A stretch of 64,000 bases of DNA from Nitrospira sp. (GTDB lineage Bacteria > Nitrospirota > Nitrospiria > Nitrospirales > Nitrospiraceae). The notes under the pieces are model-generated. The model did not search any database. It worked only from the letters and a program-made list of their open reading frames with translations, and was not told the origin of the DNA. Location: contig JANDJL010000003.1 in NCBI GenBank assembly GCA_024330965.1, positions 95,579 through 159,578 of the forward strand. Direction: 5' to 3'. Positions 2,009 to 8,653 of this stretch are shown in pieces. A program made the position numbers and the translations under genes. How positions within the stretch are numbered: position 1 is the stretch's first letter; each line of letters begins with the position of its first letter.

Positions 2009-3307
2009 ATGGCATCGGCATCGGGGATGAAAACGGATCGCTTGCTCTTGAATCGGGGGGCCGTTCTGCTCGGCGCTCGACCGGAAGAAGTCGTGCCGCT
2101 GGCCTGGGCGTTCGCCTATTTTTTCTGCCTTCTGTGCGGCTATTCGATCCTCCGCCCGGTCCGTGACGAAATGGCCATTGAGGGAGGGATCACGAATCTC
2201 CCCTGGCTGATGAGTGCTACGTTCGTCACGATGGCGGTTGCGACGCCGCTGTTCGGCTGGCTGTCCGCCCGCTGTTCCCGCTATCGGCTGCTTCTGACGA
2301 TCTACGTGTTTTTCATAGCCAATCTGGTGATTTTTTATGTCTCGATGTCGAGCCATTGGTATGCGGAATGGGTAGCCCGCGGGTTTTTTGTCTGGCTCTC
2401 GGTCTTCAATCTGTTCGTCGTCTCGGTCTTTTGGAGTTTCATGGACGATTTGTTTACGCCGGAACAGGGAGCCAGATTGTTCGGCGTCATCGCCGCAGGC
2501 GGAAGCAGCGGCGCGTTGCTCGGTCCACTGCTGACGACTGGGTTGACTTTTTTCGTGTCGGTGCCGGTGCTGATGTTGGTCTCGTCCGGCTTTCTGGTGC
2601 TGTGTCTGGGCTGTATCGATCGGCTGGAACGATGGGGTTCCGGACGCACGGCCCATCATCGACCTTCTCCTGGCGATCCGCTCGAGGGTGGGGTCTTGGC
2701 GGGCATCCGTCTCACCTTGTCTTCGCCCTATCTCCTCGGTATTTGCGGTTACATCGGGCTGCTGACTATGACGGCCACGTTTCTCTACTTCGAGCAGACC
2801 AGGCTGGTGTCGGACTATCTGGATCAGCCGGAGGCCAGGACGAGACTTTTTTCCGCGATTGATTTCACGACCAATCTGTTGACGTGGATGACCCAGCTTT
2901 TCCTCACCAACCGGGTCGTCGGCCGATGGGGGCTGGTGGCTGGTCTCATGTGTCTTCCGGCCATCAGCGCTGCGGGATTTCTGGGGATCGCTCTCTGGCC
3001 GACGCTTGCCGTCTATGTCGCCTTTTCAGTTCTGCGAAGGGTGAGCGAATATGCCCTCTCCAAACCGTCGCGCGAAGTGTTGTTTACCGCGCTCAGCCGA
3101 GAAGAAAAGTACAAGGCCAAAAATTTCATCGACACAGCCGTTTCACGAGGGGGCGATGCATTCACCGCATGGCTGGTTACCGCTTTGAAATCGCTCGGGG
3201 TCACGACGATCCAAATTGCTTGGACCTTGGTGCCGGTGATGGTCTTCTGGATGTGGCTTGCGTCGGTGTTGGCCAAGCGCAAGGAGAGGATGAAAGAGAG
3301 GACATAG
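2009..3307 (+). CDS. MFS-type membrane transporter, related to ATP:ADP-antiporter-like (Npt/TLC-like) carriers
   Basis: The 432-aa ORF has about 11-12 hydrophobic spans. The N-terminal motif FFCLLCGYSILRPVRDEM resembles the Y-x-ILR-x-x-(K/R)D motif of TLC/AAA-family carriers. Substrate is unknown. Confidence 0.6.
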   Translation: MASASGMKTDRLLLNRGAVLLGARPEEVVPLAWAFAYFFCLLCGYSILRPVRDEMAIEGGITNLPWLMSATFVTMAVATPLFGWLSARCSRYRLLLTIYVFFIANLVIFYVSMSSHWYAEWVARGFFVWLSVFNLFVVSVFWSFMDDLFTPEQGARLFGVIAAGGSSGALLGPLLTTGLTFFVSVPVLMLVSSGFLVLCLGCIDRLERWGSGRTAHHRPSPGDPLEGGVLAGIRLTLSSPYLLGICGYIGLLTMTATFLYFEQTRLVSDYLDQPEARTRLFSAIDFTTNLLTWMTQLFLTNRVVGRWGLVAGLMCLPAISAAGFLGIALWPTLAVYVAFSVLRRVSEYALSKPSREVLFTALSREEKYKAKNFIDTAVSRGGDAFTAWLVTALKSLGVTTIQIAWTLVPVMVFWMWLASVLAKRKERMKERT

Positions 3308-3716
3308 ACACGTATCCATCGGTCAGGATGCTCAGGGCCGTTTGCCATGCTCGAATCCGGTGAGATGAGGAGTCTCACGCGACGACGAGTCGAATCAAGA
3401 CGAATCCCAACGTAATGATGGGCACGCCCGCCATCTACGGCAGGCGCATTTCCATGATCGGTTTCTCCGTCCGCCACGCCACCGCGGCATCGCGCAAGCC
3501 GGACAAGACTTGTTTGTGATTGTGTATTGGTCCGATAGGTTCGAAGGTGATCCGCTCGTGAAAAACGAGCCGCTCTGTTTTTCGATGATCAGACGGCGCC
3601 ACGTCTGCGCCTGTGTCATCCTCACACCAGCCAGGTCACGATCCCATCGTTTGCACAGTGTTCGGCCGAGCGTTCAGGAGTGTCGTCAAACCCCGCTTGT
3701 GGAGTTACGTATTTCG

Positions 3717-3736
3717 CGAAACATCCCGAAACATCC
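3717..3736. repeat. perfect 10-bp tandem direct repeat CGAAACATCC x2 in the leader of the 3814-7066 cassette
   Basis: Read directly: cgaaacatcc (3717-3726) and cgaaacatcc (3727-3736), about 80 nt upstream of the ATG at 3814. Confidence 0.9.
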
Positions 3737-3813
3737 GATGTGGCAAAACTCCCATTGCTTCCTATCGGCATACGTGTTAAGACGGATGCATCTCGCCAAG
3801 GAAGTGGGAGGCA

Positions 3814-4128
3814 ATGACGCAAGACTCTCCAATCGCACGACACTTCGGCGCCAGCGTTACGCTGAAGCGAGCAGAAAGTTCGGACCGGCAACTTTTCCTT
3901 GTGAAATACGATCTATCCGATCAGACGATCCCCGGCCGGGTGAAAGCCATGGGGGGGAAAATCGTTTTGAGTGCGTCCGGTTGGATGTTGGCGGAGCTGC
4001 CTTTTTTGCTGGCGATGAGCCTTGAAAAGACGCCGGGATTTCATTTCGTCAGGGGAGTGTCGATTGACCAACGCCGGCTGGAGCTGTTCCGGCGCGCGGT
4101 CGAGGGAGCAAAATTCGATCGAAGATAA
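3814..4128 (+). CDS. hypothetical protein, first gene of uncharacterised cassette
   Basis: The 104-aa ORF has a GGGAGG SD at 3803-3808. Its alternating beta/alpha pattern (LFLVKYDL...GRVKAMGGKIV...LAELP...PGFHFVRG) is only loosely reminiscent of small alpha/beta propeptide-like (I9-like) folds. No family was recognised. Confidence 0.55.
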   Translation: MTQDSPIARHFGASVTLKRAESSDRQLFLVKYDLSDQTIPGRVKAMGGKIVLSASGWMLAELPFLLAMSLEKTPGFHFVRGVSIDQRRLELFRRAVEGAKFDRR

Positions 4129-4152
4129 AACCGACCGAAAAAGGAGGTGCGT

Positions 4153-4674
4153 ATGCCCAGTGTAGGTCAGGAGTTACTGGATACTCCGTTTCCGGAGATG
4201 GTCACTAAATTGGCTCTCGGTATTGCCGCGGGACAAACGGCGTTGGACGAAGCATCGGTGGCGACGGCGAAACTGTTGGCCGAGACGACCGTACCGATCG
4301 TGCTGAATGTCACCCAGACCATCGCCGCCGATGGGACCGTCAGTTTCTCACAGTCGCCTCCCGTGGATGTGTCGTTGCTGCAGATCGGTTTGTTGCCGAC
4401 GTTCTATCAGTTCACCGAAGCGACGATCGAACTCACCATGGATATTAAGACCACCACAAGCCGTGAAACCAACGTGAAGATTGCGGCGCAGGCCAAGGTG
4501 GGCTTTGCGGTCTGGAGCGCTTCGGTGAAGACGGACGTGGCGCATAACCGCAAGTACGGCAAAGAAGTGAGGGGTACGGCTCGTCTGTTCACGAGGCTCG
4601 CTCCAGTGCCGCCTCCTCCGCGCATCGCGCCTGAAGTGACCGTGGTTGATAGTCGTCAAGGTGGAGGCGTGTAA
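4153..4674 (+). CDS. hypothetical protein, paralogue A of tandem pair
   Basis: The ORF-track start is a GTG at 4147. The ATG at 4153 sits 5-6 nt after an AAGGAGG SD (4141-4147). Shares GQEL..TP....L...A.GQ..LD, VSLL..GL.PTFY.F.EAT.E.TMD.K, PVP.PP and C-terminal GGG[VI] with the next ORF. Confidence 0.7.
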   Translation: MPSVGQELLDTPFPEMVTKLALGIAAGQTALDEASVATAKLLAETTVPIVLNVTQTIAADGTVSFSQSPPVDVSLLQIGLLPTFYQFTEATIELTMDIKTTTSRETNVKIAAQAKVGFAVWSASVKTDVAHNRKYGKEVRGTARLFTRLAPVPPPPRIAPEVTVVDSRQGGGV

Positions 4675-5204
4675 TGGCGATTCGCCTGACGCCGCGCGAC
4701 GCGAATGGAGGGCAAGAGCTGGCGGGAACGCCGCTGGCCGACCTCATCACGCAACTGGCGGAAGCCGTCGCTGAGGGACAGGCCAAATTGGACTTGTCTT
4801 CGGCGCAGGTCGCCGCCGAGTTGGCGCGAACGAAGGTGAAATTCATCCCCGCCATTCGGCAAATCATCGAAAAAGATGGGTCCATGCGGTTCGAGCAGGC
4901 CCAGCCGATGGAGGTCAGCCTGCTCGATCTTGGTCTTCAGCCGACGTTCTATTCGTTCTCGGAGGCCACCGTGGAGGTCACCATGGATCTCAAGGTCGTC
5001 GAAGAAACCACCACGACGGGAAGCGGCCGCGCGCCGGCCAAGATGCTCTTTGCCGGCACCAGGTCCTTGCGGACCGAGCGTAAGTTGAATCGCGACGTGA
5101 AAATCTCTTCCAAAATGACGGCCAAACTGGTTCCCGTGCCGGCGCCGCCGTTGCTCGGCCCGGCGCGTGACGTCGAAGACCGGCGCGAAGGGGGAGGGAT
5201 CTAG
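4674..5204 (+). CDS. hypothetical protein, paralogue B of tandem pair
   Basis: 176-aa ORF. Its start overlaps the previous stop (TAATG at 4672-4676). It is clearly homologous to 4153-4674. Confidence 0.7.
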   Translation: MAIRLTPRDANGGQELAGTPLADLITQLAEAVAEGQAKLDLSSAQVAAELARTKVKFIPAIRQIIEKDGSMRFEQAQPMEVSLLDLGLQPTFYSFSEATVEVTMDLKVVEETTTTGSGRAPAKMLFAGTRSLRTERKLNRDVKISSKMTAKLVPVPAPPLLGPARDVEDRREGGGI

Positions 5205-5235
5205 AGGGGGCTAGCGGAGAGAATGGAGGAGGCCG

Positions 5236-5721
5236 ATGGCGGGTGAGATAACGGTCGAAGATCTACTGGGCGAATTGGGGCAGGCGATCCATGCGGCACA
5301 GTTGAGGCTGAATCGGCAGAGCCTGGAACGACCTCCTGGATCGGTGGGATTGCCCACCACCCTTTCCATCAGCGAGACCGATCTGGAAGTCAAAATTTTG
5401 TTTGAAGAAAAACAGGGAAACGCCCTGGTGAGGCCGGTCGGCCGAGCACAGGCCGATACCCCGGCGGCCGCCTTTTCCACGCTCCGCGCGAAGATCGTGG
5501 CGGTGGCGGATGAGGATGTCCGTCTGCCGCAACGTACCCCCTCCGATGTGCGCGAGGAAATTATCAAGCGCCCGGATATCGCGCGTCTTGCCAAGATCTT
5601 CGGCAGCCTCCAGGTTACGACGACGTTTGTGCCGGAGGCGGCTCGTTGGCTGGTAGACGTGGTTGAGCCGTCCGGCTCCGTGCTGCGGCGCATTCAGGTA
5701 GAAGACGGGAAGCCTCAATGA
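5236..5721 (+). CDS. hypothetical protein (helix + beta-strand module)
   Basis: 161-aa ORF with a GGAGGAGG SD just upstream. The N-terminal EDLLGELGQAIHAAQLRL helix is followed by SISETDLEVKILFEE. No family was recognised with certainty. Confidence 0.65.
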   Translation: MAGEITVEDLLGELGQAIHAAQLRLNRQSLERPPGSVGLPTTLSISETDLEVKILFEEKQGNALVRPVGRAQADTPAAAFSTLRAKIVAVADEDVRLPQRTPSDVREEIIKRPDIARLAKIFGSLQVTTTFVPEAARWLVDVVEPSGSVLRRIQVEDGKPQ

Positions 5722-6308
5722 GCACCCCCAAAACCTCCAAAACCTCCAAGAACGGTCCCACGTCGGCCGGCTCACCGTCCGGGCCGACACCCGACGACCG
5801 ACTTCAGGCCTTGATTGCCGAAAATCGGAAGCTCGGAGAAGAATTGCAAGAAGCTCAAAAACTGGCCGCGGTGCTCGAAAAGACCAATGCCCAGTCGATC
5901 GCCGCTCGCGACAAGGCGTTGAAAGAGGCGGAAGCCGTAAAGAAAACCGCTGCGGAACTGAAAGCCCAAGTTGAAGAGCTGGCTGCCTCCAACCGCAAAA
6001 TGACCGCCGAGATCGCGCGCCTCACGCGTCAGGTGGAGCGAACGCCGTTGAATCCGGTGTCGCCCGAGGAGGCGGCGGCTCTATTCGATAAGTTCATCGG
6101 CGGCATGAAACTGTCTCGCACGCTCGAGCTGCGCGATGTCCATCTCACCTTGAAGGTCGCCACGGGCAAGCTGGGTGACCAGACCGTCCTCTTATTGCCG
6201 GAGCCGGGCGCAGTCGATCCGGCGTCGCTCCATGAACTGAAGTTCAGCCTGCGCGGCATGAGTATCGCCGAAGCGCCGGACGCCGATCGCCCGGTCAAAC
6301 GCGGATGA
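5718..6308 (+). CDS. hypothetical coiled-coil protein
   Basis: 196-aa ORF with an ATGA overlap to the previous gene. It has an S/T/P/K-rich N-terminus and about 80 aa of heptad-like coiled coil (LQALIAENRKLGEELQEAQKL...). Its C-terminal module (FDKFIGGMKLSRTLELRDVHLTLKV) resembles the neighbouring small proteins. Confidence 0.65.
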   Translation: MSTPKTSKTSKNGPTSAGSPSGPTPDDRLQALIAENRKLGEELQEAQKLAAVLEKTNAQSIAARDKALKEAEAVKKTAAELKAQVEELAASNRKMTAEIARLTRQVERTPLNPVSPEEAAALFDKFIGGMKLSRTLELRDVHLTLKVATGKLGDQTVLLLPEPGAVDPASLHELKFSLRGMSIAEAPDADRPVKRG

Positions 6309-7066
6309 AGAGGGAATCCCCCGCCGAGCGGCTCAAACGGTTGAGCCAAGAGGGGAAGCTCGCCTATGAAGCCGGGCGCTACGGTGAAGCGGAGAAGCGC
6401 TGGCGCGCGGCCCTGCGATTGGTGAAACATGGTGCGCCGGGCACGGTCGTGGCTCTGCGCAATAACTTGGCCGGGCTGTTTCACGCGCAGAAAAAGTATG
6501 CCCTTGCGGCGAAGTATTTCGCCGACGCCCTTGCCGCCTGCTCTCCCGAGGAACCGGCCGCCGCTCCTTTGCGCGCCACAATCTTAAACAATCTCGGCGA
6601 ACTGTATCGTACCCAGGGAAAGAACGAGCAGGCGACCGCGTCGTTCGAGCAGGCCATTGCAATCTTGGAACGATCGACGGGCGGTCCAACGGTTCAACTC
6701 GCCCCGATGCTGAACAATCTAGCCGAGCTTCATCGGGCGGCGGGAAAACTTGAACTGGCCGAGCCGCTCTATCGACGGGCGTTGGATCTGCTGGAGGGGA
6801 CGCTCGGGCCCATGCATGCCCAGGTCGCTGTGGTTCAGAACAATCTCGGCGGGTTGTTGCTGGACGCCAATCGATTGGAAGAAGCCCAAGCAGCCTTCGA
6901 GCGCGCATTCACGATCCTGGGTCAAGCGTTGGGAGAACGGCACCCGCAAACAGCGCAGGTCATGCTTAACTGCGCCACGGTGTTGCGCCGTCGAGCCCAT
7001 TTTCTCGAATCCCGAGCCCGCGCCCTGTTGGAACAAGCGACCGCCGACCAAGTTTGCAAGCCTTGA
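6305..7066 (+). CDS. tetratricopeptide-repeat protein (TPR_12 / kinesin-light-chain-like repeats)
   Basis: 253-aa ORF with an ATGA overlap to the previous gene. It has repeated NNLA.L....GK...AE.L..RAL units (at least 5). Confidence 0.85.
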   Translation: MKRESPAERLKRLSQEGKLAYEAGRYGEAEKRWRAALRLVKHGAPGTVVALRNNLAGLFHAQKKYALAAKYFADALAACSPEEPAAAPLRATILNNLGELYRTQGKNEQATASFEQAIAILERSTGGPTVQLAPMLNNLAELHRAAGKLELAEPLYRRALDLLEGTLGPMHAQVAVVQNNLGGLLLDANRLEEAQAAFERAFTILGQALGERHPQTAQVMLNCATVLRRRAHFLESRARALLEQATADQVCKP

Positions 7067-7084
7067 CAAGTTTGCAAGCCTTGA
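7049..7084. repeat. perfect 18-bp tandem duplication CAAGTTTGCAAGCCTTGA x2
   Basis: Read directly: 7049-7066 equals 7067-7084. The first unit contains the TGA stop (7064-7066) of the TPR gene. Confidence 0.95.
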
Positions 7085-7288
7085 AAGGATAGCGGGCGAC
7101 ATCTCAGAAGACGGACCGTGGCGTCTGCTCGTCCCGTTTGGACCGGCATGAAACAGAGATGTGCGGCAGGCGTACGGGCTGCTTCCATCGGCTTTACCGG
7201 CAAAAAAATCGCATGGTATAGTCTGCCGCCGTTTACGCAGCGAGCATTCATTAATCGTCTGTCATCACGGAGGTCAAGAGAGGGATCA

Positions 7289-8653
7289 ATGCCGGAAGTT
7301 CCCGCCAAATTGTACGTCGAGAAATTGCTGAAGGAGAGTCGGGGTGACGCACGGCGGTTGGCGTTGGTGTCGGCTGCCGTCAAGGATTCGGCGCTGCGAG
7401 CGATGGCCGATGAGCTGGAAGCCGATGAAAAGGGGATTCTCGCCGCCAACGAGCGGGACGTCGACGCCCTCGGTGCGTCTTACGAGGGCGATGTTGGCAA
7501 GGACAGAATGAAAGAATTGGTCGCGCGTGTGCGCATGACGGCCGAATCCGTCAAGGAGATGGCCGGCCGGCTTCGCGTCATCGCGGACTTGCCCGATCCG
7601 GTTGGTGCTGTCACTGGGCGGTGGGAGAGGCCGGATGGACTGCAAGTCGAGCGGGTTCGCGTACCGATCGGGGTGATCGGGGTCATTTCGGAGATGAATC
7701 CGCTGATAACGGTGGAATCGATCGCACTGTGCCTCAAGTCTGGCAACCTCTGTGTTTTTTGGGGCGCTCCCGAGTGGAAGGAAACGCACCGAGTCATGGA
7801 AACGGCGTTGCGCCGCGCGGCGGAGCGGAGCGGACTCGCCGCCGGCTCGTGGATTCTGATCGACCGCCCGGACAAGGAGATGGCCCTTGAACTGATACGG
7901 TCCGGTAAAAACCTTGACGCCCTCATTGCGCGCGGGGGGATGGGCCTTCGCAAGGTCGTGATGGAACAGGCCAAGGTGCCGGTATTGTGCCATGACGGAG
8001 GATTGACGCACCTCTATGTCGATGGAGAAGTCGATCTTCCGCTGGCGCAGAACGTGGTTATTAATTCCAAAGTCCAACGGGCCGCCGCCGCCAATTCGCT
8101 CGATACGTTGTTGGTCGAGCAGATCGTCGGGCGGCAATTCTTGCCTCCGCTGATCAACCGACTGCTCGAGCAATTCAAGGTCGAGGTGCGGGGTTGTCCC
8201 AAAACCATCGCCCTGATGGGGCAGATGGCGATGACGGGTCACACAGCGATTGTTCCGGCGACGGACGCCGATTGGCGAACGCAGTTTCTGGGGCCGATCT
8301 TGGCCGTGAAAATGGTGGAGGGATTGGATGAAGCGATCGCCCACATTGCTGGCCACGGTCCTTGTCTCACGGCGGTGATCACGACGGATCGCTATGAGTC
8401 GGCGATGCGATTCACGCGCGAGGTCGACGCCGGAGCCGTGTTGGTCAACGCGTCCTCGCGGCTGCACGCAGGGGATGGTTTTGGGTTGGGTGTCGATGCC
8501 GGATTCAGTGTCGGCCGCCTGCATGCCAAGGGACCGATCGGGTTGGAGCAGTTGACTTGCGAGAAATACGTCGCCTTCGGAAGCGGCCAATTGCGAGCGC
8601 CCCATCCGGTTCCAGACACCTACTTCGACGCCATTATGTTGAAAAGGGCGTGA
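7289..8653 (+). CDS. gamma-glutamyl-phosphate reductase (ProA)-like protein with substituted catalytic motifs
   Basis: Collinear similarity to ProA throughout (VPIGVIGVI, ARGG, LYVD, NASSRLHAGDGFGLG, GRLHAKGPIGLEQLT). The ATG at 7289 follows GGAGG/GAGAGGG. The usual RP..CNA.E.LLV motif reads RAAAANSLDTLLV here, so there is no Cys. See findings. Confidence 0.8.
   Translation: MPEVPAKLYVEKLLKESRGDARRLALVSAAVKDSALRAMADELEADEKGILAANERDVDALGASYEGDVGKDRMKELVARVRMTAESVKEMAGRLRVIADLPDPVGAVTGRWERPDGLQVERVRVPIGVIGVISEMNPLITVESIALCLKSGNLCVFWGAPEWKETHRVMETALRRAAERSGLAAGSWILIDRPDKEMALELIRSGKNLDALIARGGMGLRKVVMEQAKVPVLCHDGGLTHLYVDGEVDLPLAQNVVINSKVQRAAAANSLDTLLVEQIVGRQFLPPLINRLLEQFKVEVRGCPKTIALMGQMAMTGHTAIVPATDADWRTQFLGPILAVKMVEGLDEAIAHIAGHGPCLTAVITTDRYESAMRFTREVDAGAVLVNASSRLHAGDGFGLGVDAGFSVGRLHAKGPIGLEQLTCEKYVAFGSGQLRAPHPVPDTYFDAIMLKRA

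Follow-up and report, generated by a model that had tools for sequence, protein, structure and literature searches.

A conserved, translationally coupled five-gene cassette of small uncharacterized proteins in Nitrospira and other bacterial phyla: a candidate hetero-oligomeric assembly

We analyzed a cassette of small genes in a 64,000-nucleotide (nt) stretch of DNA from Nitrospira sp. (assembly GCA_024330965.1, contig JANDJL010000003.1, positions 95,579 to 159,578 of the forward strand), hereafter called the window, to which all coordinates refer unless another locus is named. The cassette spans positions 3814 to 7066 and comprises six open reading frames (ORFs) on the same strand, each present where an initial annotation, made from the sequence alone, had placed it.

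g1, 3814-4128, plus strand: 104 amino acids (aa); Shine-Dalgarno sequence GGGAGG
g2, 4153-4674, plus strand: 173 aa, with an alternative GTG at 4147; Shine-Dalgarno sequence AAGGAGG
g3, 4674-5204, plus strand: 176 aa; Shine-Dalgarno sequence GGTGGAGG within the end of g2
g4, 5236-5721, plus strand: 161 aa; Shine-Dalgarno sequence GGAGGAGG
g5, 5718-6308, plus strand: 196 aa; start overlapping the g4 stop (ATGA)
g6, 6305-7066, plus strand: 253 aa, tetratricopeptide repeat (TPR) protein; translationally coupled to g5

The stop/start overlaps of 1 and 4 nt between these genes match, in position and in letters, those first reported (TAATG at 4672-4676 for g2/g3, and ATGA at 5718-5721 for g4/g5 and at 6305-6308 for g5/g6). 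The strong Shine-Dalgarno sequences ahead of g1, g2, and g4 were confirmed, and g3 additionally has its own. Through translational coupling, the g2 to g5 subunits are probably made in fixed ratios. Relative to two orthologous Nitrospira loci, ratios of nonsynonymous to synonymous substitution (dN/dS) are 0.03-0.05 for g2, 0.05-0.07 for g3, 0.07-0.10 for g4, and 0.13-0.25 for g1, g5, and g6 (0.13-0.24 for g1). Because dN/dS lies between 0.03 and 0.25 throughout and each ORF has many orthologs, all six are real genes under purifying selection and not chance ORFs; a lack of such selection, which the initial annotation had listed among the observations that would count against the cassette, was seen in none of them. 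Exact sequences of g1 to g5 are on record in metagenome-assembled genomes (MAGs) of Nitrospira sp., and the genome of "Ca. Nitrospira inopinata" encodes close orthologs, among them CUQ66989-CUQ66991; all of these entries bear the name "hypothetical protein."

Look-ups of g3, g2, and g4 homologs, together with one genome scan and one metagenome scan, yielded 107 loci (labeled L001 and so on), which were annotated by mapping ORFs with iterated profiles. The order g1, g2/g3-type, g2/g3-type, g4, g5 is preserved in 35 complete loci and in every partial locus, the only exceptions being one distinct variant cassette and one ORF-calling artifact, such that the proposal of one conserved, translationally coupled unit holds outside this genome. 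This order occurs in Nitrospirota, Acidobacteriota, Cyanobacteria, Actinomycetota, Desulfobacterota, and Pseudomonadota, and a Gemmatimonadales (Gemmatimonadota) locus has the full cassette with g2 and g1 swapped. Carriers of the full cassette include Nitrospira; Bryobacterales, Solibacterales, and other Acidobacteriota; Coleofasciculus and Limnothrix; Gaiellaceae; the isolate Desulfonatronovibrio hydrogenovorans; and a 303-kb plasmid (a megaplasmid) of Sphaerotilus sulfidivorans D-507, where the locus tags are EWH46_RS19845-19865. Single genes only were recovered from Chloroflexota (Anaerolineae, Dehalococcoidales) and Verrucomicrobiota, and the cassette or its genes occur in at least nine bacterial phyla. 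The stop/start overlaps at g2/g3, g3/g4, and g4/g5 also recur in other phyla. Across phyla, identity to the window proteins is highest for g2 (66-79%) and amounts to 49-70% for g3, 30-51% for g4, 28-49% for g5, and 32-45% for g1.

The TPR gene g6 was found at 15 loci, all of them in Nitrospira or Acidobacteriota, and is missing from the cyanobacterial, Actinomycetota, Desulfobacterota, Gemmatimonadota, and Sphaerotilus cassettes. Because of this restriction, the real unit is the five-gene core g1 to g5, and g6 is a lineage-specific accessory; the six-gene unit capped by a TPR protein that was originally drawn has to give way to a core of five genes with an optional sixth.

All-against-all clustering of the flanking ORFs at the 107 loci returned no further conserved neighbor, and the sole large extra cluster consisted of antisense shadow ORFs of g2/g3. 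The flanks differ from lineage to lineage and hold housekeeping genes (ribosomal proteins and glmM, psbEFLJ, Mla, PutA and valyl-tRNA synthetase, or ilvD), contexts that do not bear out the conflict-system setting to which the cassette had been likened. Neither in the cassette nor conserved beside it is there a nucleoside triphosphatase (NTPase), protease, nuclease, or vWA gene, which confirms and widens the first observation that no NTPase, protease, or nuclease is encoded here; a Lon gene lies 3 kb from the cassette in the window, and it is not a recurrent neighbor family by the same clustering. A 6.3-kb Bryobacterales MAG contig (L011) encodes proteins with 73-84% identity to those of the Nitrospira cassette (84% for g3, 82% for g4, and 73% for g5), far closer than other Acidobacteriota, and therefore represents either a recent inter-phylum transfer of the block or a mis-binned contig. 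Taken together, the cassette is best read as a mobile, self-contained unit passed horizontally between phyla in one block.

Two features of individual neighborhoods are recorded separately. Genes connected with proline or osmotic stress adjoin the cassette in some lineages (a proA-like gene, PutA or ProDH in three lineages, one MscS, and one OpuAC; window 7118-8653, L104 3208-6213, L105 4456-5391, L003 11764-12810, and L001 4553-5518), and many of the samples from which the loci derive are saline, alkaline, or arid; a BLAST census, however, gave no systematic linkage, and a proline/osmotic-stress association was rejected. In Solibacterales, a Volactin-family (actin-like) gene lies directly upstream of g1 on the same strand (L005 7939-8931 and L006 7617-8609) and is itself preceded by an Amidase_2 gene, a pair not seen in other lineages.

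Profile-profile comparisons indicate that one alpha+beta module recurs in four products, namely, in g2, in g3, in the N-terminal half of g4, and toward the C terminus of g5, with moderate support for the last two. The module comprises an amphipathic helix and long strands in which hydrophobic and charged residues alternate, to which g2 and g3 add a proline- and charge-rich tail. The g2 and g3 proteins are paralogs (41% identity, E = 9e-43; hhalign E = 6e-52). The N-terminal half of g4 aligns with g2 at an hhalign E value of 7e-6 (probability, 84%) and with g3 at 5e-4, and in these alignments the helix, a "SEAxxEV" strand, and the last strand match up. The g4 hidden Markov model also matches g2/g3-type proteins in distant clusters (E = 4e-5), and g4 and g5 align over the strand part of the g5 C-terminal region (hhalign E = 3.6e-4). 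The helix-plus-strand module that had been noticed in four of the products thus stands for g2, g3, part of g4, and part of g5, the last two with moderate strength, and does not extend to g1, for which comparison with the g2 to g5 profiles detected no relation.

None of the window proteins has a transmembrane segment or signal peptide, and their strands are strongly alternating. The first five products had been left unplaced among known families, and they remain so at curated thresholds: g1 to g4 have no match in Pfam, NCBIfam, PADLOC, or PHROGs, and g5 has only coiled-coil-type matches in Pfam and NCBIfam. Within PADLOC-DB v2 specifically, g1 to g4 have no match, g5 returns coiled-coil noise (E ≥ 0.001), and g6 hits a generic TPR model (E = 8e-6). 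Searching PDB sequences with profiles built from the g2/g3, g4, g1, and superfamily alignments yielded nothing credible.

The most conserved gene of the cassette is g2, whose product has an amphipathic helix at its N terminus, the motif PTFYQF, strands of alternating character, a hairpin that is both Ala-rich and amphipathic, and, after VPVPP, a C-terminal tail rich in Pro. The hairpin is conserved, with about 10 residues per strand, and its place is taken in g3 by a basic loop; by sequence count, the g2 and g3 tails after VPVP are 26% proline and 17-30% charged. The C termini of g2/g3 orthologs from several phyla end in (R/Q)(E/Q)GGG plus a hydrophobic residue (window 4660-4674 and 5190-5204), with or without a TPR gene in the cassette. 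None of the 116 homologs of g3 has a Pfam domain. The AlphaFold2 model of g3 (predicted local distance difference test [pLDDT], 68.7) has a 32-residue helix (residues 21-52) followed by strands, with low confidence in the loops between the long strands, and Foldseek searches with it against the PDB gave no fold match, including none to a tail tube.

In g4, the N-terminal half is a reduced g2/g3 module, and residues ~100 to 157 form two helices and three strands. Its AlphaFold2 model (pLDDT, 74.6) exceeds 90 in the C-terminal domain, is of medium confidence in the helix-plus-strands module, and has no Foldseek match against the PDB with E < 0.09; weak similarities of the C-terminal domain to dsRBD and gp25 were not significant and were set aside. 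The coiled coil described behind an S/T/P/K-rich N terminus is present in g5, where it follows the low-complexity segment at residues ~26 to 110 (about 85 aa), contains a conserved ENRRLA motif, and precedes the C-terminal helix-plus-strands module. Orthologs of g5 vary greatly in length (172-579 aa); in one Acidobacteria MAG (L013 7052-8665), the ortholog reaches 537 aa and has Flg_new_2 (InlB B-repeat) after the usual module. In cassettes with a TPR gene, g5 bears an extra basic C-terminal tail (KRG, RPR, RK, RGK; window 6260-6308) that, by alignment of g5 orthologs, is lacking where the TPR gene is lacking, which hints at a candidate docking peptide for the TPR protein.

The remaining two products resemble none of these. 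The g1 protein has orthologs at the same position in 58 loci, with near-invariant G12, A13, and D85; its gene is first in the core cassette and last in a variant cassette. It has no match in Pfam, NCBIfam, PADLOC, PHROGs, or PDB sequences, and a peptidase-inhibitor-I9-like ferredoxin fold, suggested by a residue pattern seen by eye, was rejected after no tool supported it. The g6 protein consists only of TPR repeats and belongs with TPR_12 (133.6 bits against a cutoff of 30.1; E = 2.8e-39; four stretches) and TPR_10 (87.9 bits), in agreement with its first description as a kinesin-light-chain-type TPR protein.

Beyond the core family, the g2/g3 profile retrieves 989 clusters (50% identity) at E ≤ 1e-3 from 1.84 billion representatives, just 33 of them at E ≤ 1e-30. 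The core of this superfamily runs from a helix (AxAIAxAQxxLD) through LELGFxPTFYQF, a strand (ExxIEVK), and a variable S/T-rich loop to a last strand ending in TKLVPVPPP, and the loops of the relatives accept whole domains (OmpA, Laminin_G_3, Big_2, PASTA, HhH). When 114 distant g2/g3 relatives were scanned against Pfam, the only recurrent families other than inserts were DUF2589 (PF11655; 8 of 114, best E = 3.3e-4) and Trypco2 (PF19631; 3 of 114, best E = 8.2e-4). Trypco2 is also the top recurrent Pfam family among g4 orthologs (5 of 41, best E = 0.026). The DUF2589 match covers the N-terminal helix (for example, 16.2 bits against a cutoff of 23 in P0199), and UniRef names the g2 ortholog of "Ca. 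N. inopinata" (same 90%-identity cluster) "DUF2589 domain-containing protein."

Every Trypco2 or DUF2589 match in these relatives falls below the Pfam cutoffs. No window protein matches Trypco2 at E ≤ 1, and DUF2589 matches neither g2 nor g3 of the window, P0509, nor the g2 proteins of L104 and L107. Even at E ≤ 10, the DUF2589 model does not match g2 or g3 of the window, and neither family is found in the isolated g4 N-terminal and g5 C-terminal modules, the minimal 130-aa relatives, or close g2 orthologs. When the superfamily profile was run against a protein database, the matches were confined to close g2 orthologs, with no Pfam-annotated protein to bridge the gap. Because the matches are sub-threshold and absent from window proteins, close orthologs, and minimal relatives, we regard the tie to DUF2589 and Trypco2 as distant kinship at the superfamily level, short of membership in either family. 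The Trypco2-like resemblance suggested at the outset has some computational support, in the matches of g4 orthologs and distant g2/g3 relatives, and the window proteins themselves remain under threshold.

Variant and distant cassettes retain much of the same plan. Eight loci (L058, L060, L062-L064, L068, L070, and L071) have a four-gene variant with no separate g5 downstream, in which g4 is enlarged to about 315 aa (e.g., L071 5493-6446); its N-terminal module is retained, and its C-terminal domain is swapped for what appear by eye to be a PASTA-like segment and helix-hairpin-helix repeats. Brine and marine metagenomes (L084-L095) contain a rearranged variant with two g2/g3-type genes, a long coiled-coil g5 (436-579 aa), and g1 in last place; the third gene of this variant encodes a g2/g3-type protein of minimal size (130 aa), which aligns to g4 as well. 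At L096 (2093-10142), a same-strand cluster contains an upstream TPR-like gene and four g2/g3-type paralogs in tandem, with an OmpA domain inserted in a loop of one (P0255), and then a g4-like gene and a g5-like gene with PASTA. Distant clusters (L096, L100) thus have up to four tandem g2/g3 paralogs followed by g4-like and g5-like genes, a pattern typical of hetero-oligomeric assemblies. The L096 cluster suggests that the plan of several paralogs with g4 and g5, and in places a TPR protein, is older than the core family.

The DNA flanking the cassette in the window adds a few further features. As initially remarked, the approximately 500 nt upstream of g1 (3308-3813) lack convincing coding potential: they hold no intact gene, although a 55-codon remnant of a THAP4-like heme-binding beta-barrel (nitrobindin-type) gene lies there on the minus strand (3435-3602). 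A related Nitrospira has an intact copy of that gene, of about 188-221 aa, in the corresponding place (L007 4332-4997, minus strand); most of it is gone from the window genome. An alignment of five Nitrospira loci identifies the best-conserved upstream element as the following:

Promoter-like block, 3755-3783, plus strand: TTGCTT-17 nt-TAAGAC, with TGn ahead, about 30 to 60 nt upstream of g1

This block is the putative promoter of the cassette, an assignment that stays tentative because a generic sigma-70 scan left it uncalled. The generic promoter and terminator scan found nothing exceeding shuffled expectation, and a search of positions 3200-7300 against Rfam found no RNA family. Downstream, the gene at 7118-8653 encodes a member of the aldehyde dehydrogenase family, read as proA-like from its sequence; it is not kept beside the cassette outside Nitrospira, in line with its first description as an unrelated gene.

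The characterized relative nearest to these subunits is Trypco2, a family that, together with Trypco1, takes its definition from being found alongside trypsin-like peptidases in conflict systems (Kaur et al. 2020, eLife, PMC7159879). Trypco2 is the same protein as Pepco, which has 117 aa and self-assembles through its strands into SDS- and heat-resistant 9- to 10-mer beta-barrels whose base carries amphipathic helices (Evans et al. 2025, bioRxiv 10.1101/2025.11.14.688446). Pepco works in the Avs and VMAP defense systems (Kaur et al. 2020; bioRxiv 10.1101/2025.11.14.688446) and turns into a pore-forming toxin once its C-terminal tail, rich in proline and charged residues, has been cut off by the neighboring protease (bioRxiv 10.1101/2025.11.14.688446).

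Because g2 to g5 share a module, are translated in a coupled fashion, stay together as a conserved block, and lack any enzyme or other partner, a hetero-oligomeric complex is the simplest reading of the cassette. We tentatively favor, at somewhat less than even confidence, a model in which g2, g3, g4, and g5 would build one Pepco-like hetero-oligomer with g1 as a partner. The four subunits would co-assemble through their strands into a single ring or barrel-like complex, from which the g5 coiled coil and the g4 C-terminal domain would project as appendages. Our guess for g1 is a small partner outside the four, possibly a cap or an assembly factor, and the TPR protein, where present, would dock on the extra C-terminal tail of g5 as a clade-specific adaptor. 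What the data show is the conserved cassette, the paralogy, purifying selection, and the absence of enzymes, transmembrane segments, and phage links; co-assembly, barrel geometry, membrane association, and the contact between the TPR protein and the g5 tail are features that we infer. A more far-reaching version, in which four Pepco-fold paralogs would form a beta-barrel or ring that operates without a dedicated protease and Pepco would be a stripped-down, weaponized offshoot, appears rather unlikely to us; such an unrecognized machine might be, for example, a regulated channel of the cytoplasmic membrane, a stress valve, or a new structural organelle.

Several observations weigh against the hetero-oligomeric model. 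The links of g4 and g5 to the shared module are moderate, with hhalign probabilities of 32-84%. The window proteins fall below Pfam, NCBIfam, and PADLOC thresholds, and the superfamily link consists of sub-threshold matches in distant relatives. The OmpA, PASTA, Big_2, and Laminin_G inserts in the loops of relatives are hard to square with a purely cytoplasmic complex. The AlphaFold2 models, which are of monomers, are of medium confidence and have no PDB match. Finally, the correlation between the g5 tail and the TPR gene comes from two phyla only, and it may reflect mere shared ancestry because the cassettes of these phyla are each other's closest relatives.

Among the alternatives, it is unlikely, in our estimate, that the cassette is an anti-phage or conflict module in which g2 to g5 would be latent Pepco-like pore toxins, the TPR protein (where present) a sensor, and an unlinked host or phage protease the agent that clips the proline-rich, charged tails after LVPVP. 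The sub-threshold Trypco2 matches of g4 orthologs and distant g2/g3 relatives are consistent with it, the helix, strands, and tail resemble the description of Pepco, and the patchy distribution with transfer of the block between phyla (e.g., the Bryobacterales contig at 73-84%) also speaks for it; TPR proteins also serve as sensors in conflict systems (Kaur et al. 2020, PMC7159879). However, none of the 107 loci has a protease, NTPase, or other sensor within the cassette or next to it, most cassettes lack the TPR gene, no PADLOC model matches g1 to g4, and the neighborhoods are housekeeping regions and not defense islands. Cross-phylum identities of 66-79% and a dN/dS of 0.03 would also be unusual for arms-race genes. 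Given this extreme constraint, the housekeeping neighborhoods, and the lack of a linked protease or sensor, we think that a constitutive, membrane-associated or structural role is likelier than that of an abortive-infection toxin.

A structural role need not involve a membrane, and the subunits might instead form a soluble cytoplasmic scaffold or cytoskeleton-like polymer, in which beta-sheet augmentation would generate filaments or lattices, bundled by the g5 coiled coil and stabilized by the TPR protein. The logic would be analogous to that of BtubAB with its kinesin-light-chain-like TPR partner. This is equally compatible with the sequence data, though it has no positive match to a known polymer, and overall we judge it improbable. 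The lack of transmembrane segments and signal peptides, the several paralogous subunits accompanied by a coiled-coil subunit of variable length (172-579 aa), and the extreme conservation, which is typical of structural polymers, all accord with it, but library, PDB-profile, and Foldseek searches uncovered no similarity to any known cytoskeletal family, and the OmpA, PASTA, and Big_2 inserts are domains usually found outside the cytoplasm. That many hosts are filamentous (Coleofasciculus, Limnothrix, Sphaerotilus, Anaerolineae) and that a Volactin-family gene lies immediately upstream in Solibacterales are points in the same direction, but anecdotal ones. By far the least probable alternative is a domesticated phage-derived structure, such as a lysis-released particle with tube-like subunits. 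A weak Phage_tube_2 match (E = 0.002) occurs in one distant relative, and relatives have Ig-like loop inserts of a kind seen in phage structural proteins. The BFVD entry A0A516MP19, an unnamed 178-aa protein from an uncultured virus, matches the g3 model (Foldseek E = 1.2e-3; probability, 1.0; template modeling score, 0.41; 19% identity); this is only a borderline structural match, and no viral homologs were found at the sequence level. A phage origin is essentially excluded by the absence of matches to 50,697 phage records, to IMG/VR with either the core or the superfamily profile, and to PHROGs for g1 to g4, and by the absence of capsid, sheath, baseplate, terminase, or lysis genes nearby; nor did Foldseek detect a tail tube in the PDB.

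If the hetero-oligomeric model is correct, a fold known to date solely from the single-gene suicide toxin Pepco and an unstudied DUF would also underlie a multi-subunit complex. The hosts are ecologically weighty and include comammox-related Nitrospira, soil Acidobacteriota, mat-forming cyanobacteria, soda-lake sulfate reducers, and Sphaerotilus, and the cassette, at about 2.5 kb, is self-contained, widespread, and highly constrained. Its function and structure are directly testable, since it is small, self-contained, and present in cultured strains, namely, Sphaerotilus sulfidivorans D-507 and Desulfonatronovibrio hydrogenovorans; Coleofasciculus chthonoplastes appears by source record name only, the cassette context having been seen in Coleofasciculus MAGs. 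No description of the cassette as a system was found in the searchable literature, and every one of its genes is annotated as "hypothetical." Its subunits occupy the outer margin of a superfamily of which a single member has recently been characterized.

The NTP-dependent conflict systems of Kaur et al. (2020) are built on a STAND, MoxR-vWA, or other NTPase core with effector or peptidase genes, and no such core or companion genes accompany the cassette. The g6 protein likewise scores 62.8 bits, against a cutoff of 300, with the model for the TPR protein of FxSxx-COOH systems (NF040586); the likeness is one of generic repeats, and g6 has no fused NTPase or effector domain. The one literature report of note on DUF2589, which describes a tandem array of short genes in Archaeoglobus fulgidus (AF0414-AF0417; PMC3949148), recalls the tandem paralogs described here, but the g1, g4, and g5 partners lie outside the definition of DUF2589, and this link adds no mechanism because DUF2589 has no known function. 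Pepco, compared here by description only, is the closest parallel: it is small and non-enzymatic, and its layout, in which an amphipathic helix at the N terminus is joined by alternating strands and a proline-rich, charged tail, appears to be present in g2 and g3 and, reduced, in g4. The composition of the g2 and g3 tails after VPVP is likewise similar to that of the Pepco tail. The peptidase neighbor that defines Trypco2 is found neither among g1 to g6 nor as a conserved gene across the 107 loci, and the cassette has no adjacent trypsin-like or caspase-like protease and no STAND or MoxR sensor. At about 175 aa, g2 and g3 are some 50% longer than the 117-aa Pepco and include an extra beta-meander. 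Unlike Pepco, the cassette resides in housekeeping contexts under very strong sequence conservation, and it has four paralogous subunits together with g1 in place of one homo-oligomerizing protein.

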